Assembly: GCA_051599415.1 (NCBI GenBank)
Contig: AP039710.1
Coordinates: 1-64,000, forward strand
Source: Savitreella phatthalungensis
Taxonomy: Eukaryota
Length of the DNA: 64,000 bases
Direction: 5' to 3'
Shown piece by piece: positions 1,753 to 46,802 of this stretch (positions are counted from its first letter, which is position 1; each line of letters begins with the position of its first letter). Both the position numbers and the translations under genes were made by a program. The notes beneath the pieces are model-generated. The model was not told the DNA's origin, searched no databases, and saw only the letters and a program-made list of their open reading frames with translations.

Positions 1753-2386
1753 GGCGGCCACCGGTGTAGCGCCTAACTGGCGCTCGCCTGGTTGCAGGGC
1801 CGTTTGCAGGGCCGAAATTTCACCAGCCACACGCTGCGCCGCAGAACCGTGCGATTGTGTCGGCAACATCTTACAACCTTCAGAAGACAGGTTCTTGACG
1901 ACTGCCTGGTGCCACTACCTCCTAGTACTACTACCTCCTAGTACTACCACGGCCTGTTATTAGTGCCACCACCTAGTACCACTACAACCTGCTGCTAGTA
2001 CGATCTAGTAGGTGCAAAAAATGATCGACTCGGCGACGACCTAGCACCACCACCTAGTAGTACTACCTAGCGCGACCTGGCACGGCCTATTACTAGTACC
2101 ACCACCTGCTGCTAGTACGACCTTGTACTGCAGAGTACTGCCACGAGTACTGCCACCTGGCACTACCTAGCACTGACTGCGACCAAGGCCAACCTGGACC
2201 TGGTCACATGACGGCACAAATTTTGTGTAAAGATACCATTGGCTAGTCATCTTATCTCATCTTATCTCCTATCTCATCTTATCTATGCCTCTATGTGTGC
2301 GCCCCATGACATCATTTTCTAATTGTGTGTCCACTTTGACTGGCTATATCTTCTGATCCAGACGTCAGATGATCACAAGACTAGTC

Positions 2387-2544
2387 TCATCATGACGCCA
2401 TTGATCAACTCTATAAAAAGTATTTTGACATGTACTACGGTTTTTCATCTATATACTGAGCTTGTTTCATCATGACGCCATTGATTGACTCTATAAAAAA
2501 CATTTTCACATGTACAACAGATTTTCATTTATATACTGAGCTTG
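2387..2544. repeat. Two-copy 80-bp tandem repeat
   Basis: TCATCATGACGCCATTGAT..CTCTATAAAAA..CATGTAC..ATATACTGAGCTTG occurs at 2387-2464 and 2467-2544. Confidence 0.9.
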
Positions 2545-2885: not shown

Positions 2886-3112
2886 CAGTTTGGTTCATAT
2901 TTGTGGGGCACTGCAGTTTGGTTTTTGCAGTTTGGTTTTTGCAGTTTGGTTTTTGCAGTTTGGTTTGCAGTTTGGTTTGCAGTTTGGTTTGCAGTTTGGT
3001 TCTTGCAGTTTGGTTTTACAGTTTGATTTTACAGTTTGGTTCACAGCTGCAGTTTGGTTTTGCAGTTTGGTTCTTGCAGTTTGGTTTTACAGTTTGGTTT
3101 TACAGTTTGGTT
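2886..3112. repeat. Tandem 12-15 bp repeat (GCAGTTTGGTTT[TT])n
   Basis: More than a dozen CAGTTTGGTT units with variable T-run length. Confidence 0.9.
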
Positions 3113-4370
3113 CGTCCCTAACTGTAAGTCAACAGTTAGGGATGCCATGCAGTGTTTCATCCCTAACTTCATGGCTATAATCTGGCGCTGCTGAAAACAG
3201 TTTGGGATTTTTGAACGGAATATATATAGAGCTGACAAATTGCGTACATCTTCGTGCGCGGCAATCACATTTTCAACATGCCAGGGCTCGGATGGTCCTT
3301 AAGCCTATTTCCTCCAGTATTGGCTATTACTACTGTCGCAACAAATGGTGCGCAGACATCCATTGATTGGATTGTAATGATGTCTTCACATGGCATGCTC
3401 TTGCTAATACTACACTCCTGTACAGCATACTGACCTAGCTTGAGGATCTCCACCATTTCAGGGCACCTATGTCACGCTTGCAAGGCCGACATGTAGGGTC
3501 AAATGGGCGGTGCTTGGCTTGCTTCTGCCATGTGTTCCAACGGTCAAACTGGTCGACATTGACCACGCTATCACGGTATACCCACAGGCTCAAATAGCAC
3601 CACAATCAGCCTAGTTGTATGCCTAGCCAATGGACTATTCTGTAGCGCCAATCAGTCTTGTAGATCCAGTTTGTTTGTTCTAGCCTGTTATTCGATAAGA
3701 TTTCAATTTTGCCGTTGTTGACCTGGTTCTGACAGATTTGACCCGAGTTGGACCTTGACTGGTGGCTAGTGACACTGCTGTCAATTGGCGGGTTGAGCTG
3801 CAGCTTGCGGGCTAAAAATCTCACTCAGCGGTATCAATAGTCGCGCAAGCTCAGGCTTCCTTGACTGTTCACTAGTTTTAAAAAACCGGTAATTTGATTC
3901 GAAAATTTAACACGGTACGATTTCTGAACGGAACATAATAGGCCCTTTGGCCATGTGCCACACGGCTGTGGTGCCCCTTAAGCTACTGCGATGCCTGTCA
4001 TAAGCCTTATGCATGGAGGGCCGATGTAGGTCAGATCAATCTAGGGCTTGCCTTCGTCGTTGTATCTACTTGTGTTCAGACTGATGTATGCTCTCGCATT
4101 GATGCCCACAGTACACGCGGTAATTTAGGTTTATACGTAATTTAGCCAGCTGACTGCCCTGAGTGATGTTAGAGTCGCGGCATCATGCCTCTTCCTGATT
4201 GAGTTAGTTAGATGCCGTGTACAGGCATGGTCGCTATCGCCATGATGACCACAGCCGCGGGCGCCTGCGCCGGGCAACCGCACCGCGAGTAAAGCTTCGG
4301 CCCCACAAACGTCACTATGTTTTTTTTTTCTGAAAAAGAATGTCGTTCCCATTTGGACGCGTTGAGGCCC

Positions 4371-25292: not shown

Positions 25293-25713
25293 TGTCGCAA
25301 CCGCTCGATCGTCCAGGTCAATTGTATACACTCCGTACGCAACGCCGTCACTTCCGCACTCATTTGGTCTAGGTATGACAAGATTGCAGACCCGCATGGA
25401 GCCGTCATAATAATATTGTTCTGCGCTGGGTCCTGGTATTGGTGATATCTGGCATGCTATCTCTGTGCAGCGGGCTGCGTCCTCTTGTACCCCTGCCAAC
25501 CTGCCATGTCAGCAGAGTTGTGGTATGCATCAGTTATAGCGTAGTTGGCGTCCCTGCCTAGACCATCTCTTGTAATCCCTCTGTGTCTGTTTGTACTTGT
25601 TTGTATTTCTCGTGTTTCTTGGTGGACTCCATCTGTGTCCTCCTGTGTCGTCTGGTCCGCGTCCGTGTTGCTTTATCCGTCGCTCTCGGATCCTGCGGCC
25701 GTCTTCCGCGACA
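25293..25713. mobile_element. Degenerate solo-LTR-like repeat, copy 1 (421 bp)
   Basis: Ends TGTCGC...GCGACA form an inverted terminal repeat; aligns end to end with 26722-27145; no clean TSD. Confidence 0.7.
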
Positions 25714-26721: not shown

Positions 26722-27145
26722 TGTCACGGCCGGTCAATGGCCCAGGTCGATCGTATACGGTTTGTACACATTGCTGTCACTTCCGCAATCACTCAGTCTA
26801 CTTATGACAAGCTAGTAGCCCCGCATGGAGCTGTCAAATAGTATTGTTCTGTTCTAGGTCCTGGTGTTGGTGATTTCTGGCACGCTGTCTCCGCCCAACA
26901 TGTTGCGTCCTCTTGTACTCCCCCTACCAACCTGCCACATCAGCAGAGTTGTGGTATATATCAGATATAGCATGGTCGGTGCCACCGGCTAGGCCGTCTC
27001 TTGTAGTCCCTCCATGTCTGTTTGTACTCGTTTGTATTGCTCCGTGTCACACAGTGGACTCCGTCTGTGTCCTCCTGTGTCGTCTGGCTCGTGTCTGTGC
27101 CGCTTCGTTCGTCGCTTTCGGGTCTTGCGGCCGTCCTCCGCAACA
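26722..27145. mobile_element. Degenerate solo-LTR-like repeat, copy 2 (424 bp)
   Basis: Ends TGTCAC...GCAACA; direct repeat of 25293-25713 with many CpG transitions. Confidence 0.7.
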
Positions 27146-35436: not shown

Positions 35437-38400
35437 CTAGTCTGTAAAGTCACTGATCTCTACAGTCTTGCTCAAGGACGACTGCGCAGCCTGAAGCTTC
35501 GCATTCTGTCTCGCTCTGGCGTTTTTGCGAGCCTGTCTTCGCTCTTGATTGCGCTTTAGGCGGGCGAGCTCGTCTTCGACCTTCTTGCGCTGGCGCGCAG
35601 CGATTTCCTCGGGCGTGCCATTCACGAAATCTTCTGCCATACGCGCCTCATGCATTTGTCGTCGCTTCTTCACATACGCATGGATGACGTGCGGATTGGT
35701 GATGACCTCCGTTGTTGACTTCGGCTCCCCGTATTCGTTGCGCACAACCCGGGTGATTCGGAGCACTTTATTGGCGACTGATCCGCTCATTCCTGATGCA
35801 AGGGATGCGTTATCATCGTCCCCATCACTCGTTACGGAAGTGTCAGCGGGCGTTTGCGCTGCACTACCACTGTCGACAGCTGGAGAGCCCATAGCCGTCC
35901 CGTCATTCTCCCTGTTAATGGCCTCAAGTGCATCTCGGTCGAGCACTTGCGCGCCTGACATGGACAAGGTCGCCTTCTGCGAGTTCCATATGCGCGAAAT
36001 CTCGTCTTCGTATGCCCGTTGTTGATCAGCGACATTGTAGCTATGGCCAGCTCTGGCGCCTTTTGTAGGCTTGCTGTCGGTGTCATCGCCTCCGCCGAGA
36101 CTGCGGAAGCCACCTTTCATCGAAGTGCGAACAAAACTGAAGCCCTCGCCGCGGCCTGTTGGGTCTCCCTCGCCGTTCAATTGCAGCATGGCTTTTCCTT
36201 GGGTAGCGTTGATGAAGTTGCGCGATGTCAGCCACGGAGCCAGCATTTGCTCGATGTCGAGATTGTCGTCTTTGTCGTCGTCTCCGTCGACTGCTTTACC
36301 ATAGCCTGCGTCTTCCAGTTGTCGCAGGCCAGCCTGCATCGCATCCACGAGACAGACTGTTTCGGGATCCACCATGGATCGAGTACCCTCTTCAGAGGGA
36401 AGGATATCGCCATCCTTGAGGCGCCAATAGCCCATGTCTTCCCCTTTGACGCGATTGTATTCCATGAAATCCTTAAGTCGTTGTCGCAGTTGACTCTCGT
36501 TTTGTTCGGGGAAATGCTTGATGAGATCTTTGACAATTATCCGGCCGAGATCATTACGGCGCATGATGCGGTAGGTCACCATCTTGAGCCTGTTCTTGGC
36601 AGCCGTCGTCACCCTTCGAGAGTGGGGGCCTGGAATTTCCACGATGGGGAAAAGCTGACCGACGGTAAAGACGTGCTTGATGAGACGTAAATAACATCGA
36701 TCGCCGCTGGACCGCGTCCTGTCACGTAGTAGGAGGAAGTCCGTGGGTTCCGGATTGTGCTTGAATACAGGCGCACGAATCATACGATTGTACAACGTCG
36801 GCACAGTCTCTCCGTGTTCGACGTGACCAAAGGTCCAGAATGGACTGCCGTCTGTCGGTGCAATAACATGTGCTTCGCCGAAGCCTCCTTTCGGGCGATA
36901 CTCGTCATCGTCGGTCCGCTTGCGATAGTAGTTGACGATCTTGCTACCCATACCCGTGTTCGACAAGACCGCAGGGTACTCCTCCGAGTACTCCAGCAGG
37001 GCGAAGCCAGTACTATCTGCGAGGGATATGTCCTTGGTCAAAGGCATAAGGATGCGGGGGTCGCGTACTTTGGTCTTAGGGCGCTTGCGCAAGCGAGAGA
37101 AGCGCATCTCCTGGTTTGGTTTGAACAGCATAGCAGGCCGATGGAATGCACGCTGCTCGGATTTGTTCAAAGACGTACGGTAGAACGGGCTTTGCAGCCT
37201 TTCCGCAAAGCCAGCATGCGCTACTTCGAATTGTGTCAAGTTCGATCTTACAGTGCGCCTCGAGTGTGATCTGAGGCGCTCGTAGACTTCATCGTTGCTC
37301 CATGCGAGCCGCTGGAGCAGTCCCGCTGTTGTTCGGCGTGAGTCCTCCGAAGCTCCAGCTTTGCGCACAAGCAGATGATCATCATTGAGATCGAGTTGCG
37401 CAACAGGTCGCAAGCGTCCGCTTACCGCGGTTTCAATATCAAGTGGCGTCAGCAAGTCTTCGTCGCGCAGAAACGAAAGTCTCGGCAACGCGGGCTCTGG
37501 CTCAGTGGCATTGGAGGCTCGATCGAGAACATCATCCCACGAGGTACAGGCTAGAATAAGATCTGCGTCGCCTTCAGAAAGGTCAGAAACTAGATCAATC
37601 GATGACTGAGCATCGTCTTCAGGCGTGTTCGAATGCGCTCCTAATTGCTGTCCGATACTCTCCGTAGTGATGATGCCAGAATGCATTCTGTCGAGGCGCA
37701 CACGCTTGTTGCGGTGAACGAAGGCTAGACGCTGATCCGGCTCGAGCTCGAGTGCCGCACGTACGGGTACCAGACTCCTAGGCGCCTTTCTCACAGCTAT
37801 CCGAAACTTTGACTTCATGGCAAAGAGCTCTGTGAATTTCAGTTTCGCGCCAGGCTTGAAGCTTGGATAGTAACGCTCGAGAATCTCGTCGTTTGTGAGC
37901 TCGCTGTCGCCCAGCATATGTACATCGGGTATAGCCTGGTCCAATGCATCTGTTGCTTCCTTGACACCGGCCATCCATTTTGCCATTTGACCCGATGCTT
38001 GTGGTGGGAGGCCTCCAAAGTCTGGCAGCGATATTTCCGGACCATTGTCTGCATCCACATCACCGGGTTCAACATCCTTCTGCGCCTGCTTAATAAGGTC
38101 TTCATAATTGAAATCCTCACGTTCCCCTGTCGGCTCTTCCTCCTCCGGAAGGTCTTCATCGCCGAGACCTGAGGATTGCAGGGATAGATTGTCATCCATC
38201 TCTCGAAAGTGCGCACCAATGTCGGCAAATTCGCCCAGCTTTTTATTGCTGGCATCCTCGTCCACCTGCGACGCGGTCGCTTGTGGGAGCTGGAAGAAGT
38301 CATCTGCAGCTTCAATCCCATTGCTCAAATCGGGATAGCCATCCGCAACGTCGCCATCCCCTTGGAAGTGATGCGGAAGGAAGAAGTGTCCAGAGTCAGA

Positions 38401-38460
38401 ATCAGCATCTGATTGACCTCCATTCTCCCCGAACAGGTCAATCTCATCGCCTTCTTCCAT
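35437..38460 (-). CDS. TAF1: TFIID subunit Taf1
   Basis: LLEYSEEYPAVLSNTGMGSKIVNYYRK, LYNRMIRAP, IPGPHSR, LAPWLTSRNFINATQGKAMLQLNGEGDPTGRGEGFSF. Confidence 0.95.
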   Translation of the reverse strand: MEEGDEIDLFGENGGQSDADSDSGHFFLPHHFQGDGDVADGYPDLSNGIEAADDFFQLPQATASQVDEDASNKKLGEFADIGAHFREMDDNLSLQSSGLGDEDLPEEEEPTGEREDFNYEDLIKQAQKDVEPGDVDADNGPEISLPDFGGLPPQASGQMAKWMAGVKEATDALDQAIPDVHMLGDSELTNDEILERYYPSFKPGAKLKFTELFAMKSKFRIAVRKAPRSLVPVRAALELEPDQRLAFVHRNKRVRLDRMHSGIITTESIGQQLGAHSNTPEDDAQSSIDLVSDLSEGDADLILACTSWDDVLDRASNATEPEPALPRLSFLRDEDLLTPLDIETAVSGRLRPVAQLDLNDDHLLVRKAGASEDSRRTTAGLLQRLAWSNDEVYERLRSHSRRTVRSNLTQFEVAHAGFAERLQSPFYRTSLNKSEQRAFHRPAMLFKPNQEMRFSRLRKRPKTKVRDPRILMPLTKDISLADSTGFALLEYSEEYPAVLSNTGMGSKIVNYYRKRTDDDEYRPKGGFGEAHVIAPTDGSPFWTFGHVEHGETVPTLYNRMIRAPVFKHNPEPTDFLLLRDRTRSSGDRCYLRLIKHVFTVGQLFPIVEIPGPHSRRVTTAAKNRLKMVTYRIMRRNDLGRIIVKDLIKHFPEQNESQLRQRLKDFMEYNRVKGEDMGYWRLKDGDILPSEEGTRSMVDPETVCLVDAMQAGLRQLEDAGYGKAVDGDDDKDDNLDIEQMLAPWLTSRNFINATQGKAMLQLNGEGDPTGRGEGFSFVRTSMKGGFRSLGGGDDTDSKPTKGARAGHSYNVADQQRAYEDEISRIWNSQKATLSMSGAQVLDRDALEAINRENDGTAMGSPAVDSGSAAQTPADTSVTSDGDDDNASLASGMSGSVANKVLRITRVVRNEYGEPKSTTEVITNPHVIHAYVKKRRQMHEARMAEDFVNGTPEEIAARQRKKVEDELARLKRNQERRQARKNARARQNAKLQAAQSSLSKTVEISDFTD

Positions 38461-38866
38461 ACTTGCTGTGAGCTAGGCCTCTTGCTGCGGCGTCTAACTA
38501 TATGGCATCACCTGACTGTGCGGCGGCGCTGATGTCATGGCAAACCTTGGCAATCTCTACTTCAACAGGCTCTGTCTCGTCGAGCGAGGACCTAGCTGTG
38601 TACACATTTTTGAAAACAGTACGCGTATGTGCTGTATAGCTAATTACTTATTGTCTCTCCACACTGCAGACGATCGAGTTTTCACAATTGACTATAATTC
38701 ATATGGCGGGAAAGCAAACAAGCCGACTGCATCCTGTATATTGTACTCTCTTGTCCTTAAGATTTCGACTGGCGTGCATCCAAATGACCAGATTCAATTT
38801 TCGAATTCTGTCCCCGCGGTCGCGCACGATTTTCACCGATGCAGTGGATGTAAAATACATACGTAC

Positions 38867-39030
38867 TGTTACGCCAAAAGGTCTTCCACCCACAAGTCAT
38901 GATTCAGGCCCGCACGTGACCTCGTGCGCCACACAGTCTTTTCCATTAGCCACACCAAACCCTTTATAAGTAAAGGGTTCGTCACTCGTAGTGCATCATC
39001 ATTCTCTGCACCCTCTCGTTCTACCTAACA
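38867..39030 (+). repeat. 5' LTR
   Basis: Identical by eye to 44828-44991. Confidence 0.96.
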
Positions 39031-39033
39031 TAT

Positions 39034-39042
39034 TGGTAGCGC
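39034..39042 (+). promoter_or_regulatory. Primer-binding site, initiator tRNA-Met type
   Basis: TGGTAGCGC lies 3 nt after the LTR and is complementary to the 3' end of yeast tRNAi-Met (GCGCUACCA), like the short Ty3 PBS. Confidence 0.8.
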
Positions 39043-39061
39043 TAGACAGCAGAGTCTGTGT

Positions 39062-41764
39062 ATGTCCTCACGACCCGATAGTCCTACGACTCAACAACCA
39101 GTGACAGAAGATTCAGCTCAAAATCTTGAAGGTAGAAGTTCTGGTCGTGAATCGCGCACAGACCCTCCATCCTCAACTTCAGGTCGGGAGACCGAGAGCG
39201 GTGCCCAACGCAGCCGACGGGTTGCCTTACCCCTGGAAGACAGACCGAGTACTCGAGCCAATCAAAAAAGGATCGAGGAACTCAGGGCAGCTCGACGTGC
39301 TAAGGAAGCCCAGCAGAGGTTGGAGGCATCAGCCAAACGGGCTGGTACCTCTCAGGAACAAGACCCTTCATTCTCACAACTGCCGGGAACATTTCCGAGA
39401 GAACCCGCTGCAACCACCTCACCAGTGTTGACCACGGAAGCCAATATGCCGTCCGGGGATACTGCACGTGAGGAACCAGCAGCAGCAAACTTTGAACAGT
39501 CAGTCCTCAATGCTCTGAACACGCTCCGTCGCGAGGTCGAACGGGGACGTGATTCAACAGATGAGTTACGTGGAAACCTGTCGCAGTTATCAAACAATTT
39601 TGGGCAATTTGCTCGACAAGTAGACGAACGATTCCGCCGTCTGGAGTCCAGTAGCCGCCCTGTGTCGCAGGAAATGCGACGAGAGGATGAAGCACTGCCA
39701 GCACGGGACACAACTCCCCAAGTCCCGGAGGAACCTCGTAACAGGAGCCAAACTGAAAACATTGGCGCTCAAGCCCAACAACGTCAAACCCCGAGAGCCG
39801 AGGCTTTCCCCGGTAATGCTGACCTCACTGGTCAAGACCAGGCATTCAACCAACCTTTCGACTACGGGGGCTCGGCCTTTTTCGCACACAGTGTTTGCGA
39901 TCCCCAAACTCCTAGATTCTCGGAACAACTACGTAGGGCTTCCGTTCCACGCGGAAACGACAGCAACTTACCGATTTTTGGGGGATTCAACCGTCTTAAA
40001 GCTAAGAGTCTCGGAACTCTTGAGACGGACAACCCGCAAAGGTATTTGCAACAATTGGAAGTCCTGAAATCCCAGCACTCCGACGAGACCATACTACAAG
40101 CGCTTTGCGAGAATTTGAACGGTAACCCAGACACGGTCGTACGTGACTGGTATTACTCTATCATCACCTCGCAATCGCCTCGTGAGGTCAATCTCCGCTC
40201 ACATCTCGGAGGATGGATGTCGATGATACACGCTTCTTTCCAAAAAACGCTCATTCAGAACGAAATGTTGCTCGACAAGATTTCCTTCACTTGGACCGAG
40301 AGTATTATGAGTTTCGTGTCACGCCTTCGCTCTGCCTTGTCGGCCTGTGGCAGAGTGTCACCGGCAACGCAACGATACGAAATAGAAAAACGACTTCCTT
40401 TGGAATTTAGGTTCACTCCTTTTGCCGCCAACGATCTCGAAGGTTTCATTGCCGAATTGCGCTATCGAGAGGCGGCCGCCAAGAATACGCATCAAAGTAC
40501 TTTACGTCTATACTCAAGTTCGGAGAAGTTATCAGGAAACCGATTTGCGAGACAGAAAGAGAACTACCCCAAGATCTCGGACAAGACCACTACAGACAAG
40601 ACCATTACAAGAAAACCGGCAAAGCCTTGTCCAAGGTGCAAAACGTCTCATTTCTATTCGGAAAGCCAGTGTCCCGATGGGAAATGGTTCAAGCGCGAGA
40701 ACCTCAAGACAATCACTAACTTCGTCTACGAGGATTCCGAAGACAATGAGTGGGACGAGGACGTTGAAGACCCTATTGACGTACTGGCAGTTGGGGACAG
40801 CCCTTTTCCGTCGCGGCCTACCAGAAAAAGGTCCAGCTCGCCGGCTTCCGAAGAACGAAATTCGAAGCGCGTTTTGGGAGATCTCGACGCCATTAACATC
40901 AATTTGGTCGAAGCCCGAAGCGATGGAGTATTCGTCCATCAAACTTCAGTCGACGGAACAGCCAGATGCATAAAAGCCCGCCCGGTAGGCGGACCGCCTT
41001 CCGAATACAGCTACACTAAGGTCGGTCACTATCGAATTCAAGTGGCGAACAGCCCTGGAGGAACGCCTGCGTGGCTAGTACTGGACAGCGGATCTCCGAT
41101 CTCACTGGTCGCAGCCGGATACCTGGAGAAAGTCTTCCCATCCGCGGTGCCGATGGAGAAGGAACAACATAAAAATCTCTTTGGCATCGCAGGAGATAAA
41201 CTGCAATCCACGCACGGCATGCAACTGTCCCTATTCTGTCCTCTGAAGGATGGAGCCTGTGTTGAGATCCAAGGATATTTCCACATCGTGCCAGAGCTGT
41301 CAGCAGGTCTACTCATTGGCAATGACATAGCGACAGCCTACCTGATGAAGACAGACTCTGAAGACTCTACGGTACAGATAGGACCAAACGGCCTCATCGC
41401 CGAGCTCAGTTTCAAACCAATGGCTAACACGACTTATGAGGTATCCTCTACCGAGGATCGTATCGTTCGACCAGGCCAAGAGGTTCGAATCGCAACAGAC
41501 ATTGGTTCCTCGTCCAATGCGCACCGGGGTGAAGAACAAGTGTTCATCGGACAGAGCGTTATCAACAGCGAGTCAAGCTCCAAAGGAATGGCCGTCGACG
41601 CCCTCCTTGCGCCCTGGCAGTCAAAGATTTGCTTCGCAAATGCCGGAAAGACACCTCTTCGAATTCGAAGAGGCCAGCGGGTTGGATGGTCCGAACCATT
41701 GGCGACTTACTATGTCTTTCAGGATTTTGGCCAGCGGATGGTCACGGGCAACACCACCCGCTAG
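39062..41764 (+). CDS. Retrotransposon ORF1: Gag + aspartic protease + dUTPase-like segment (900 aa)
   Basis: Capsid-like VRDWY..ESIMSFVSRL, zinc-knuckle variant CPRCKTSHFYSESQC, protease VLDSGS..LLIGND. Confidence 0.85.
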   Translation: MSSRPDSPTTQQPVTEDSAQNLEGRSSGRESRTDPPSSTSGRETESGAQRSRRVALPLEDRPSTRANQKRIEELRAARRAKEAQQRLEASAKRAGTSQEQDPSFSQLPGTFPREPAATTSPVLTTEANMPSGDTAREEPAAANFEQSVLNALNTLRREVERGRDSTDELRGNLSQLSNNFGQFARQVDERFRRLESSSRPVSQEMRREDEALPARDTTPQVPEEPRNRSQTENIGAQAQQRQTPRAEAFPGNADLTGQDQAFNQPFDYGGSAFFAHSVCDPQTPRFSEQLRRASVPRGNDSNLPIFGGFNRLKAKSLGTLETDNPQRYLQQLEVLKSQHSDETILQALCENLNGNPDTVVRDWYYSIITSQSPREVNLRSHLGGWMSMIHASFQKTLIQNEMLLDKISFTWTESIMSFVSRLRSALSACGRVSPATQRYEIEKRLPLEFRFTPFAANDLEGFIAELRYREAAAKNTHQSTLRLYSSSEKLSGNRFARQKENYPKISDKTTTDKTITRKPAKPCPRCKTSHFYSESQCPDGKWFKRENLKTITNFVYEDSEDNEWDEDVEDPIDVLAVGDSPFPSRPTRKRSSSPASEERNSKRVLGDLDAININLVEARSDGVFVHQTSVDGTARCIKARPVGGPPSEYSYTKVGHYRIQVANSPGGTPAWLVLDSGSPISLVAAGYLEKVFPSAVPMEKEQHKNLFGIAGDKLQSTHGMQLSLFCPLKDGACVEIQGYFHIVPELSAGLLIGNDIATAYLMKTDSEDSTVQIGPNGLIAELSFKPMANTTYEVSSTEDRIVRPGQEVRIATDIGSSSNAHRGEEQVFIGQSVINSESSSKGMAVDALLAPWQSKICFANAGKTPLRIRRGQRVGWSEPLATYYVFQDFGQRMVTGNTTR

Positions 41765-44700
41765 GTTCGGCCCAAAATAGCAGCATCTACCACACGGTAG
41801 ATTTGCCCGAGAATCCAGAACAGGTAAATCTGGATATCGACATCAATCCGGCGCTTCCCCAAGAGGAAATATCCAAACTGAAGTCAGTCCTACAACGCCA
41901 CGCCGCTCTGTTCCGGAACGGATGGGGGCTCCTTAATGACGGAACCAAGATGAGTATCCGTCTCAAAAGCGACAGTGAGCCATGGGCGCAAACCCCATTC
42001 CGTCAGTCACCGCGGGCAAAGAAGAAAATCGACGAAGTCCTGGACGAAATGAAGCAGCAGGGTAGAATTGAACCCTCTACTTCACCCTGGGCCTCACCGG
42101 TGTTCGTGGTCTACAAAAAAGGACTTGGCAATGGACCTTCCCAGCCTCGAATGGTCATTGACTATCGGAAAGTCAATGAACTAGTTGAAAAGGACGAATA
42201 TCCGTTACCGCGACAGGAAGACGTCCTTGAAGCTGTATCGGGAGCGAAATACATCAGCGCCTTTGATCTGCGGAAAGGCTTTTATCAAATACCTATTGAC
42301 GAAAGGTCTCGACCCCTTACGGCTTTCACGTCGCATCGAGGGTTAGAACAGATGACCGTGTCAATTATGGGGTACTGCAACTCTCCCGCCTTTTTCCAAC
42401 GCCAGATGAACAGGATTCTAGCCCCATGGCTGTGGAAACATGCGGCAGCATACGTGGATGATCTGCTCATCTGGTCGGACAATATCGACGACCACGTTCG
42501 ACATCTGGACAAAGTTCTAGGAGCATTCGAGTCTAAAGGCTTAACGCTTTCCGGCCCAAAGGCACACGTGGGTTATTCCGAGGTGGAAGCATTAGGCCAT
42601 CGAGTGGGCCGCCTAGGCCTGAGTACACAGGCTTCAAAGGTGGAGGCCATCCGTCGTATGAAGCGACCTAACACTGTTGAAGAACTTACCGCCGCACTCG
42701 GCATATTCAACTACTACCGTCAATTTGTGCCCAGATTCGCGCAAACAGTAGCTCCGCTGTACGGTATGTTAAAGGCTGCAAACAATAATCAGCGAGTCAT
42801 CTTCAAAAGGCAAAAGAAGGACGGCGACGCGGTGCATTATGACAACCTTAAAAAGAGACCGGTGGTCTGGACTCCCGAGGGGATTATCGCTTTCGACACC
42901 ATCAAAGAGCGCTTGTGCGACACTACTACTCTGGCCCCACCAGACTACACAAAAGAATTTCTCCTATACACGGACGCAAGCTACAACGGATATGGAGCAG
43001 CGTTGCATCAGGTTGACCAAAATAATGTGGAACGGCCTATCGTCTTCCTTTCCCGACGGCTGGACAAGCACGAGATGAATTACCCTCCTACAGAACTTGA
43101 ATGTGGCGCTCTCATTTGGAGTCTAAAGAAACTACGCCATCTTCTGGAAGGATGCCCAGTGAAGGTGTTTACGGACCATCAAGCACTACAGTGGTTAAAG
43201 AATCACAAAACCGGTTCAGCAAAGATGAACGACAGACTCGCTCGCTGGGCCCTAATGCTGGACGATTACAATCTCAACATTCAATACCGTCCTGGAAAGG
43301 AAAACGCCAATGCAGACGCTCTCAGCCGACTAGTCAACAACGTACAAGTCAATCTACAAAGCGACTGGACCGAGTACTACCATCGAGACAGAGCGTTTGG
43401 AGCTCTGTTCGACAAACTTGAGAAAACGGCAACCACGGAACCATTCCAGAACTTCTTCCTTTCCAAAGGCAAACTTTACTTCGAGGATAAAGACAACGGA
43501 CAAGCAAGACTATGCGTACCCAGCAACTTACTGGCAACGATAATCAAGCACGCACACGAGCAGTTTGCTCATCAAGGTGTAGAAAAGCTCTATGACCGGG
43601 TTCGACACCACTACTACGCACGCAACTTGCTACAGCAGGTGCAGAAAACGTGCGCCGACTGTGCATCCTGCAAAGAAAACAATCCGGTCCGACATGCCCA
43701 ATGGGGTGTCCTTCAACCCATAACCGCAAACATTCCACTTCAGGTTGTCTCAATTCACTGGGTTACAGGCCTTCCGGAGTCCGGCGGTTATAATGCCTTC
43801 ATGACAATAACGGACAAGTGTACTAAAGTCGTCACTATCATTCCGTGCCGCGATAATGACGGCGCCCCGGCAACAGCGCACAGGTTTTATTCCGTCTATT
43901 ATCGACGGTATGGGCTGCCCGAGCGAATCATCTCAGACAGGGATGTCCGATTCACCTCCAACTTCTGGAAAGCATTGTGCAAGCTACTCAACATAACCCG
44001 AAACATGACAACTGCATACCTCCCGGAAGCAGATGGACAAAGTGAAAGGACAAACCAAATTGTCGAGATCGCTCTTCGCCATTACGTGGACACCGACCAG
44101 GGTAATTGGGACATCCATTGTGCCGCAATAGAATTCGCCATCAACAGTGCTCGCCAGGCATCAACAGGGTACGCACCGTATCATCTACTGTATGGCAGGC
44201 AAGTTAACGACGGCCTCCACTTGAGTACTGAACAACTCCGTGCCAGTCGTTCTGCGACGGTCCCACCACCGGGGACTTCGCCAAACGCAGACGAATTCTT
44301 TAAAAAGCAAGCTATGCTACGGATGGAAGCTCTCGACAATCTTGCCTACGCCATCATGCGTATGTCCCGCGTTTCTGCCGGCATTCACAAAGAATTTGAA
44401 GTCGGGCAGGCGGTGATGCTCAATATCAAGGACTATCCCACAAAACGCTTCGTTGAGAGTCGAAAACTCGGACCCCAAAGGATTGGTCCTTTCAAAGTGC
44501 TTGAGAGAGTCGGAAAGCTAGCCTATCGACTGGATCTACCGAAGCAGATCCGCATCCATCCAGTCGTATCCGTCGCGAAACTAGAAGCCGCTACCGAGAA
44601 CGTCAGGCTTCATAGGCGACCACACGACAATTCCTCCGATATCAAGCCCGAAACTATACGACTCGAAAGAAAAGGCTCGTACCTCATCAGGTGGCAGGGA

Positions 44701-44817
44701 CTTCCCGAGTACGAATGCACATGGGAACCACGCGACACCATTGATGAGAAATTTCCTGACTTGGTGGCCTCATGGCGTTCTCGACGCCAAGCCGCCAGGG
44801 ACGGCGCCTCGTCTTAA
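41722..44817 (+). CDS. Retrotransposon ORF2: RT-RNase H-integrase-chromodomain (-1 frame relative to ORF1)
   Basis: RMVIDYRKVN, YVDD, YTDAS/ELE/TDH/ADALSR, HHCC, IISDRD, DGQSERTN, GPF, YLIRWQG..TWEP. Start drawn at the candidate slippery site. Confidence 0.92.
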   Translation, partial: GFWPADGHGQHHPLGSAQNSSIYHTVDLPENPEQVNLDIDINPALPQEEISKLKSVLQRHAALFRNGWGLLNDGTKMSIRLKSDSEPWAQTPFRQSPRAKKKIDEVLDEMKQQGRIEPSTSPWASPVFVVYKKGLGNGPSQPRMVIDYRKVNELVEKDEYPLPRQEDVLEAVSGAKYISAFDLRKGFYQIPIDERSRPLTAFTSHRGLEQMTVSIMGYCNSPAFFQRQMNRILAPWLWKHAAAYVDDLLIWSDNIDDHVRHLDKVLGAFESKGLTLSGPKAHVGYSEVEALGHRVGRLGLSTQASKVEAIRRMKRPNTVEELTAALGIFNYYRQFVPRFAQTVAPLYGMLKAANNNQRVIFKRQKKDGDAVHYDNLKKRPVVWTPEGIIAFDTIKERLCDTTTLAPPDYTKEFLLYTDASYNGYGAALHQVDQNNVERPIVFLSRRLDKHEMNYPPTELECGALIWSLKKLRHLLEGCPVKVFTDHQALQWLKNHKTGSAKMNDRLARWALMLDDYNLNIQYRPGKENANADALSRLVNNVQVNLQSDWTEYYHRDRAFGALFDKLEKTATTEPFQNFFLSKGKLYFEDKDNGQARLCVPSNLLATIIKHAHEQFAHQGVEKLYDRVRHHYYARNLLQQVQKTCADCASCKENNPVRHAQWGVLQPITANIPLQVVSIHWVTGLPESGGYNAFMTITDKCTKVVTIIPCRDNDGAPATAHRFYSVYYRRYGLPERIISDRDVRFTSNFWKALCKLLNITRNMTTAYLPEADGQSERTNQIVEIALRHYVDTDQGNWDIHCAAIEFAINSARQASTGYAPYHLLYGRQVNDGLHLSTEQLRASRSATVPPPGTSPNADEFFKKQAMLRMEALDNLAYAIMRMSRVSAGIHKEFEVGQAVMLNIKDYPTKRFVESRKLGPQRIGPFKVLERVGKLAYRLDLPKQIRIHPVVSVAKLEAATENVRLHRRPHDNSSDIKPETIRLERKGSYLIRWQGLPEYECTWEPRDTIDEKFPDLVASWRSRRQAARDGASS

Positions 44818-44827
44818 CGGGGGCATA

Positions 44828-44991
44828 TGTTACGCCAAAAGGTCTTCCACCCACAAGTCATGATTCAGGCCCGCACGTGACCTCGTGCGCCACACAGTCT
44901 TTTCCATTAGCCACACCAAACCCTTTATAAGTAAAGGGTTCGTCACTCGTAGTGCATCATCATTCTCTGCACCCTCTCGTTCTACCTAACA
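44828..44991 (+). repeat. 3' LTR
   Basis: Preceded by PPT-like AACGGGGGCATA and followed by TSD CGTAC. Confidence 0.96.
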
Positions 44992-46802
44992 CGTACTGCT
45001 GCGTCGGTTCAGCAGCATAGAATGTACATAAGGATGCACGCAAGGATGCAGGAGGCGAGATCATGCTAGGCGGTCATTTGCTTGCAGGATCAATGCGACG
45101 AACATTTGTGTGCTCGAAGACAGTGCTCCAGAGTGTCTAGAAAATCAAAGATCGTTGCAGCTTACAGCTTCCGAATGGACACAGCTCAGGAGAAATTCCT
45201 TAATCTCAGCTCATCTGCGACTCTGGCAGGCTACAAAGGGATCCCATACTCACAAACAATAGCTACTAGCTTCTCCTTATAGCCTATCGAATGTTAAGCA
45301 CAGCAAGATTCAGAGTAGGCGCGCATGGGAAAGCAGGTCGAGCGACCGAGCCGCACGAGCGCTAGAAGGCATATAGATCGTTGCAACGCTGATGACATGA
45401 CTCAACGCGGCTGCAGATTTGCATACCAGCTCGCTTTTCTTCAAGACAGCGCGTAACAGACATCCTTCGACATGTGGAATTCATATAAGACGACGTCATT
45501 TAATCGTCCTGATCCCGGCAATCTTCACATTGATGGGGGATTTCGGCGAAGGTTGTGAGCGCCTGAGTAGGGCTTCGCTTGGAGAATGCCCGTCCCGAGT
45601 GAAGGCTTACGACATTTTGTCATCGACAGTGCCAAATGCATGCCGGTCTGCCAGGCGAGAGCAATGAGCCATTAGCACACCATCAAGGAGCAATTTTGGT
45701 TGAAGACTACATTACTACATAGAGGTCATTGGACAGGCATACAATCACCCGCGTACCATGCTTCTCGGCTTTGATAGATTAGATCGAGTGGACACCTGCC
45801 CTGACTGATGCAAGCGAGAATGAGTGCAGCGTTGGAAGAAGTGCAGCCAAGGACAAATTGACTTGCCTGTGTGAACCGCGCGAACTGCGTGAACTGCGTC
45901 AAGTCGATGCACTGTTGGATGTTGATTGAATGCGCCATTACAGCCTCTTCGTTTAAGGCTTGACTGCAAACAGATATCAGTGTTCAACCTGAGCAGTGCT
46001 CCCTGATCTTGAGCCGTAGTCCTGGCTCTTGAACCTCTTAATTTTGAACGCGCGATTCTTTGACCTGCAAGAGATTTCGGAAAGTTTTCAATGAGTATAA
46101 ATTTTCAAAAAGTAGATCCATTTAATACAAAATAGAATGATGAATATCCTGATTGCATGAGTATAATGAATGGAATTAAATGAAAAATCAGCTCCACTTT
46201 CACCCTCACATAATTTAATTAAAGTTTGGCAGGGTTGTCTCAAATCACTTGGCAAGCTTGCTTCTTTCCACCTTCAAGGCATTGATTGACCTGATGTTCC
46301 CGCTCTGATGACCTCCACTCGCAAGGTTTGGCACACTATTCAGCCGTACTCGTTAAGGCAGAAACAGATCCTTGGTGAAAACGGCCGAGTGGAAATGTCT
46401 CACTTGATCTTGTCTCACTGTCGTTCGATCTTTCTGGGTTACTCGATTCTGATCTCTGATTGAGCGCCTCATGAAATCAGTTGCCCGTATTGACCTGTCT
46501 TCTTCCAGACAAAGAGTGCAGGCGACTGAGCCAGCCCTCTTCTGCAAGTGCCCGTATAAGGCCTTGTATGACGAGTCATTCGAGGGTGACCAAATTGAAA
46601 TGCTCCTTCAAATGTTAAGACTGGCTTGTCAATCTTGAGAGCGATCTTTGACACAGGGTGTCGTACAAAAGTGCCGTCCAGTCACCCATCGCGTACGTCT
46701 GGACGACTTTGATCGTTGCCTTTATCCTCGTCCACGATCGCCCACGTCGTCGTCGCCTGACGCTCCGACAGAACGGGTCGAGACCAGACATAGTGCGCTG
46801 TC

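Follow-up and report, generated by a model that had tools for sequence, protein, structure and literature searches.

In the usual model, long terminal repeat (LTR) retrotransposons ration protease (PR), reverse transcriptase (RT) and integrase (IN) together, and the low dose of protease prevents premature cleavage of Gag. Here we describe a Ty3/gypsy-type LTR retrotransposon located in the first 64,000 nucleotides (nt) of contig AP039710.1 (assembly GCA_051599415.1; this whole stretch is called the window below, and the features of the element are all on its forward strand) of Savitreella phatthalungensis, a yeast placed close to Protomyces and Taphrina (PMC8877625). The sequences of this element and its relatives suggest, with a probability that we put at about 0.85, that a programmed -1 frameshift operates between an open reading frame (ORF) for Gag, protease and a (pseudo-)dUTPase and another one for RT, RNase H (RH), integrase and a chromodomain, and that this is a shared feature of a clade.

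Gag-PR followed by a frameshift to RT is known from avian retroviruses and is unusual for LTR retrotransposons of this kind. In the alpharetroviruses (Rous sarcoma virus, RSV, and MAV) Gag-Pro is in one frame and Pol is reached by a -1 shift, a '0/-1' pattern like the one found here (PMC1224870) and the arrangement to which the initial annotation of this DNA had already compared the junction; in MAV, Gag and PR are described in equal amount (PMC11402058). The fungal element differs from the alpharetroviruses in its chromodomain, its lack of env, the dUTPase-fold domain that follows PR and its G_NNU_UUU shift site, and the likeness of layout is convergent. A split between Gag-PR and RT brought about by other mechanisms already has plant precedents. 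In Ogre and Retand of the Tat lineage, ORF1 encodes GAG-PROT and ORF2 encodes RT-RH-INT, as here, although Ogre is split by a spliced intron, and Retand and some Ogre by a single stop codon, whereas the fungal element is split by a -1 overlap (PMC6317226); moreover, Ogre and Retand are non-chromoviruses, unlike the chromodomain element described here. In that work, no plant lineage is listed with an overlapping-frame GAG-PROT/RT split as the prevailing form (PMC6317226). The order PR-dUTPase-RT is shared with the fungal chromoviruses PosPlaTy3-5 and with reports for Phanerochaete and Tuber Tmt1 (PMC2864245), and a dUTPase also lies between PR and RT in the bdelloid elements Juno, Vesta and TelKA (PMC5408684). 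However, the dUTPase of those fungal chromoviruses was described within Pol (PMC2864245), whereas in the element described here it is the last domain of ORF1 and is apparently without the catalytic motifs. Yeast elements have been described with PR in Pol (PMC7175516). A literature search that left most subscription papers outside found no -1 shift after PR described in LTR retrotransposons.

Four features of the junction can be read from the DNA itself: the order of the domains, the overlap in the -1 frame, the heptamer and the potential for base pairing. ORF1 (39029..41764) has 911 codons from stop to stop, with the first ATG at 39062 and a TAG at 41762-64, and contains a Gag-like region, the protease and the dUTPase-fold domain. 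ORF2 (41533..44817; 1094 codons) overlaps it by 232 nt in the -1 frame and includes, according to Pfam, RT (42115-42606), RNase H, integrase, an SH3 domain and a chromodomain (44668-44784), so that the ORF coordinates and Pfam bear out the previous placement of RT in the -1 frame relative to ORF1. The putative assignment of the 5' part of ORF1 to Gag is based on where it lies, on a motif resembling a Cys/His knuckle that the family alignment shows, and on Atlas leads, all below 0.9; Pfam gave no Gag match in this region. A PDB sequence search with the ORF1 alignment (A2) returned nothing significant.

Pfam alone did not detect a protease in ORF1 either. However, an AlphaFold model of the last 287 residues of ORF1 (mean predicted local distance difference test score 78) matched Ddi1 and retroviral proteases (Foldseek E 4e-6), and its residues 41-176 matched retropepsins (VIA Z 13.9, root mean square deviation 2.5, 119 residues aligned), in line with the protease proposed in ORF1 by the initial annotation. 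The retropepsin domain occupies 41021..41428 and its catalytic Asp (codon 41084-86, in an LDSG motif) is invariant in 15 of 15 aligned ORF1 sequences. In the catalytic column of alignment A2, 7 of the 15 proteases carry DGG, DTC or DSC in place of D[ST]G, and DTC is also present in the protease of one sister-clade protein.

Between the protease and the shift site there is a domain that had previously been overlooked (41423..41716; model residues 175-272), to which we assign the dUTPase fold from its match to several dUTPases (VIA Z 8.0-9.3, root mean square deviation 2.8-3.4, 85-92 residues aligned); the Pfam dUTPase match had an E of only 0.12. This domain showed no invariant column in a 16-sequence alignment, and, judged by eye, the set of five dUTPase catalytic motifs, to which the Asp of motif 3 and the Gly-rich motif 5 at the C terminus belong, was missing, a motif-4-like G..(I/V)G being the sole one seen. 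Its sequence suggests that the domain is probably without catalytic activity. Because the ORF1 model matches first retropepsins and then dUTPases, the frame break falls after a PR-dUTPase-fold unit.

The overlap contains five candidate heptamers, if a candidate is defined by an A-site codon in which the first two base pairs survive a slip of -1. G_GAU_UUU (41722..41728), in ORF1 phase (CAG GAT TTT GGC), is the last of them and the only one with full U_UUU re-pairing, and it is of the X_XXY_YYZ type and in the right phase for a programmed -1 signal. G_GA is an accepted exception among -1 slippery sites, and the same G_GAU_UUU is used by pea enation mosaic virus, the genome of which is unrelated (PMC5009743), which agrees with the earlier claim that this is a used -1 site. 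A 4-nt spacer (GGCC) separates the heptamer from stem 1 (41733..41762; 41733-42 with 41753-62), with 9 of 10 pairs and an A.C mismatch. The heptamer, spacer, stem, ORF1 TAG and the ORF2 ATG at 41686 are all found at the positions that the initial annotation had given.

The 45-nt segment of stem 1 is in the top 3.3% of 2027 segments of the element, the 72-nt fold at the junction has a z of -1.70, and the 94-nt cassette gave a z of -2.69 against shuffles, 1 of 200 of which was as stable. The initial annotation had also proposed a pseudoknot in which the loop GGGC (41746-49) pairs with GCCC (41770-73). Both tetranucleotides are present, but this 4-bp stem 2, matched by 22 of 300 controls, is probably wrong, and we set it aside in favour of a predicted 7-bp stem 2 (41745..41809; CGGGCAA at 41745-51 with TTGCCCG at 41803-09), a pairing equalled by 0 of 1164 control segments, which leaves a loop 1 of two nt, a loop 2 of one nt and a loop 3 of forty nt. 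Inside loop 3 and abutting stem 2, a stem 3 hairpin of 7 bp (41785..41802; 41785-91 with 41796-41802) was seen in two predicted folds, and its inner six pairs also in a third. From these predictions, the junction RNA would probably be a three-stem pseudoknot, of the general type of those of severe acute respiratory syndrome (SARS) coronavirus and RSV, the latter being one in which a third stem is important (PMC5009743).

The programmed recoding put forward by the initial annotation is supported by the recurrence of heptamer and stem in four of four families of this genome, that is, the window element (contig C22) and three families on contigs C3, C4 and C9 that the annotation had not seen. The RTs of these three are 48-50% identical to that of the window element; the two LTRs of each are identical, and they share its primer site. 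In all four families the protease motif lies in ORF1, and RT is read in the -1 frame. The heptamer is G_GCT_TTT in C4 (C4:137410-16, 3 nt before the ORF1 stop, in an overlap of 22 nt) and in C3 (C3:343978-84, 0 nt before the stop) and G_TCT_TTT in C9 (C9:23192-98, 0 nt before the stop), G_GAT_TTT of the window element being 33 nt before its stop. NNT-TTT pairs occur only once or twice per ORF1 in the three new families, and such a pair would fall within the last 12 codons by chance with a probability of 0.037, 0.018 and 0.030. GUCUUUU, the heptamer of C9, gave 4-8% shifting in reporters and is used, also between protease and polymerase, by Bemisia-associated dicistrovirus 2, although that genome is unrelated and its predicted pseudoknot was dispensable in vitro (PMC11125867).

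A stem of 8-10 bp, the sequence of which differs by family, is found 3-6 nt 3' of the heptamer in all four families. MAFFT did not align the four junctions in register and per-element tests were therefore used in place of a covariation count: the stems of the three new families had z values of -3.3, -2.7 and -3.5 against shuffles and were in the top 0.5-1.9% of segments. A pairing of 6-7 bp between the loop and downstream sequence is present in three of the four families, the 6-bp ones being equalled by 9 of 1050 controls in C3 and 18 of 1139 in C9. In the C4 copy (locus L085, C4, ~135730-135810) the RT frame ends just after RNase H and the integrase goes on in another frame, a change at a short homopolymer run that is a candidate for a private lesion or assembly error.

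The frame break of the window element is also present in a second copy on contig C2, which is inserted at a different target site and differs by 30 substitutions in 6125 nt, being identical across 41650-41850. The two copies share a 761-nt substitution-free stretch around the junction, a post hoc observation that we do not count as evidence. Contigs of sequencing runs X1 and X2 also span the junction without an indel; these two runs are one sample, possibly the source of the assembly, and because of this they are not independent. The possibility raised by the initial annotation, that sister copies or reads would reveal a single continuous ORF, was therefore not borne out, since both the second copy and the run contigs keep the junction.

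Protein relatives extend the split layout beyond this genome. The eight best RT relatives among the 120 matches listed (P0002-P0009; RT 45-53% identical) begin 41-148 residues before RT and carry no PR or dUTPase-fold domain (DUT), and they form one clade with the four families (Shimodaira-Hasegawa-like approximate likelihood ratio test, SH-aLRT, 97) in a tree of 59 of 125 scored rows, obtained by a quick search without bootstrap and with no named reference elements included. Our survey found the split in 12 of the 13 RTs of this clade, which are without a protease in their frame. In the sister clade, PR-DUT is continuous with RT in 10 of 12 proteins, and in the next group outward in 8 of 10, the rest being N-terminally cut in both cases. 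The tree suggests a single origin of the split, from an ancestor in which PR, DUT and RT shared a frame. Across the shift, the spacing from the catalytic Asp to YxDD is ~455 residues, in agreement with the 430-490 of the continuous relatives.

A search with the ORF1 tail found 39 other proteins, 6 of them running on into RT, and 14 of these 39 matches (the longer top ones, three of which are the other families of this genome) were taken into the ORF1 alignment. Phe is present within the last 6 residues in 7 of the 11 ORF1 relatives from other assemblies (Phe frequency 3.3%), and in three further ones an [YHE][PD]F that aligns between them lies 15-20 residues before the C terminus. In four ORF1/ORF2 pairs, the two members lie on ENA contigs of one size (14338, 6160, 6242 and 6028). 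When 198 protein pairs were tested in two shifts, only two distinct compatible overlaps were obtained, both -1; in one of them, P0163/P0006 (both on 6028-nt contigs), the 12-codon overlap is compatible only as -1 and forces G_GCT_TTT, and 5 of 20000 random 12-mers were compatible in the control. The -1 signal is conserved in the four families with DNA and in this one forced ENA pair, the exception being P0135.

Scans of metagenomes (80 loci) and GTDB (5 loci) gave distant elements only, and a viral scan gave no related locus. The layout could be scored in 18 of these 85 metagenome and GTDB loci, one of which (L008) has a protease motif in an upstream -1 frame; it is probably a decayed copy, because L007, from the same assembly series, is continuous. 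A search for long fused forms with alignment A2 returned one weak match (21% identity), which is weak evidence.

Several observations weigh against a programmed frameshift or its spread through the clade. P0135, the closest RT relative found (RT 59% identical) and placed inside the clade, has part of PR, DUT and RT in one frame; it is a truncated singleton, beginning after the catalytic Asp and stopping shortly behind RT, and either decay of the copy or a reversion may explain it. Another relative, P0122, has no terminal Phe, and the clade placement itself depends on the quick RT tree without bootstrap. At the RNA level, stem 1 alone is not more stable than shuffles in its 45-nt segment (z -0.39; 94 of 300 as stable), the minimum-energy non-knotted fold at the junction favours competing hairpins, and C4 has no convincing stem 2 (685 of 1043 controls pair as well). 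Eukaryotic -1 signals usually have a spacer of 5-9 nt, for which the 3-6 nt found in the four families are short. Finally, P-site re-pairing is imperfect for all four heptamers, and no paper on G_GCU_UUU was found in the literature search.

Among the other explanations, splicing is the main one, because a CAG ends at the first base of the heptamer both in the window element and in C9. An intron with the pyrimidines and CAG at 41720-22 as acceptor would join PR to RT or yield a subgenomic RT mRNA, for which plant Ogre offers a precedent (PMC6317226). A YAG is located at the same place (-2) in these two families and nearby in C4, and the Phe-rich end of ORF1 could equally reflect a pyrimidine tract. 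However, C3 has no nearby YAG (the nearest is at -34), none of the four families has a CTRAY branch motif within 60 nt on the upstream side or 40 nt on the downstream side, there is no strong donor within 400 nt in the window element, and the frames overlap without intervening stops. Furthermore, splicing predicts neither the fixed -1 phase nor the phased U-run nor the 3' stems, and we consider it improbable. In host DNA, branch-point distances showed no peak from which an intron style could be read.

Still less probable is that RT is made separately, through internal initiation or re-initiation, from an ORF2 AUG, for instance the one at 41686..41688, which is upstream of the shift site. The context of this ATG is favourable, with G at both -3 and +4, and an ORF2 Met upstream of RT is also found in C3 and C9, but its position is not conserved: the Met positions are unrelated between families (52, 93, 12 and 44), and the first Met of C4, residue 93, comes only behind the conserved WGLL motif with which RT starts. 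In addition, a free Pol would be without Gag for its packaging. Transcriptional slippage, in which the polymerase and not the ribosome corrects the frame on the T run, would account for the fact that nothing else at the junctions is as constant as this run of 4-5 T, but such runs are short, and the codon phase together with the conserved 3' RNA structure fit ribosomal slippage, so we regard it as very unlikely. Finally, a lesion or assembly error in a normally one-frame element, for which the continuous P0135, the short T run at the site and the other frame break at a homopolymer run in the C4 copy could be invoked, is largely refuted: both copies and all four families show the same break, as do four ORF1/ORF2 pairs on equal-size ENA contigs, and in the P0007 cluster 5 of 5 members have 1148 aa.

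For a programmed -1 frameshift, we infer the slippage itself, its efficiency and the stoichiometry of the products as follows. Most ribosomes would stop at the TAG at 41762, giving abundant Gag-PR-DUT. A minority would pause at the pseudoknot, which probably has three stems, while GAU occupies the P site and UUU the A site, and would then slip back one base in tandem, tRNA-Phe re-pairing fully and the P-site tRNA partly, and these ribosomes would make a scarce Gag-PR-DUT-RT-RH-IN. As the protease sits before the shift site, in ORF1, it would be equimolar with Gag, and only RT and integrase would be rationed.

Two other elements of this genome provide a comparison. One of them, which we call C3b (C3:467357-472552, or L118:2358-7553), is a distant gypsy, represented here by one copy (RT 27% identical), with identical 183-nt LTRs and no chromodomain match. 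Its ORF1 includes the protease, which Pfam matches at an E of 2e-4 that does not reach the curated cut-off, and its RT is at -1. A G_GGA_AAC precedes the stop by 12 nt and is followed after ~7 nt by a hairpin (z -4.1), and the element is a possible independent origin of the same layout. The other one, on C23 (L117:2182-8890), is a conventional chromovirus, with gag, G_GGA_AAC right before the stop and PR-RT-RH-IN-chromodomain at -1. Its -1 overlap is of the same type as that of the window element, but in C23, as in plant Tcn1 (GAG:o:PROT), the shift comes before the protease, unlike in the window element. C23 is on a long branch far outside the clade of the four families, in a tree without named reference elements. 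An older LTR copy, 73% identical, is found 1.3 kb upstream of the C23 element.

A wider and tentative reading, which we hold to be somewhat less than evenly probable, is that an undescribed fungal Ty3/gypsy clade moved the -1 shift from the gag/PR boundary to a position behind PR-pseudo-dUTPase, with imperfect G_NNU_UUU sites and pseudoknots of three stems, and that C3b did so independently; because C3b would have reached the layout on its own, an equimolar protease like that of alpharetroviruses would have arisen repeatedly in LTR retrotransposons. In this scenario, the protease may have a weakened active site, as in the 7 of 15 ORF1 proteins without D[ST]G, and the dUTPase fold may have been reused to restrain protease dimerisation. 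A clade with protease at 1:1 to Gag, beside a sister clade with continuous PR-RT, would be a natural comparison for the control of protease timing. The junctions also add G_GCU_UUU and G_UCU_UUU, in which re-pairing in the P site is poor, to the candidate slippery sites of eukaryotes, together with four sequence-divergent candidate stimulators from one genome, short enough for reporters. Annotation pipelines would label such elements as broken or overlook their protease.

The element extends over 38867-44991 (6125 nt) and is a recently inserted fungal chromovirus-type element. It is bounded by identical 164-nt LTRs with TG...CA ends (5' LTR, 38867..39030; 3' LTR, 44828..44991) and a 5-bp target-site duplication (CGTAC, 38862..38866 on the left and 44992-44996 on the right), features that together with the order PR-RT-RH-IN place it in Ty3/gypsy (Metaviridae), the chromodomain 3' of the integrase (PF00385, E 1.6e-10) being that of chromoviruses. 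The primer-binding site TGGTAGCGCTAG (39034..39045), which complements the 3' end (plus CCA) of the host 72-nt tRNA-Met(CAT), is common to all four families of the clade in the genome; a sixth match to it (C1:212299) was discarded as it is not an element. There is no sign of tRNA-gene targeting, because ARAGORN found no tRNA in the 8 loci examined, and Rfam gave no match in 5 loci. The element is inserted ~0.4 kb upstream of, and head to head with, a TAF1-like gene on the reverse strand (window 35437-38472; Pfam DUF3591, E 2e-175). Elsewhere in the genome, a diverged, 77% LTR-like match to the LTR of the window family (L003, C1:502769-502919) is probably a solo LTR, and a further RT match in a 971-codon frame (L113, C18:22529-22786) belongs to none of the LTR elements studied here. 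Two repeats close to the beginning of contig C22, a duplicated unit of 80 nt and a tandem array of 13-14 nt (window 2381-2540 and 2919-3126), are probably subtelomeric, and a ~300-nt duplication with ~82% identity and a spacing of 1430 nt is present at 25409-25713 and 26837-27145 of the window.

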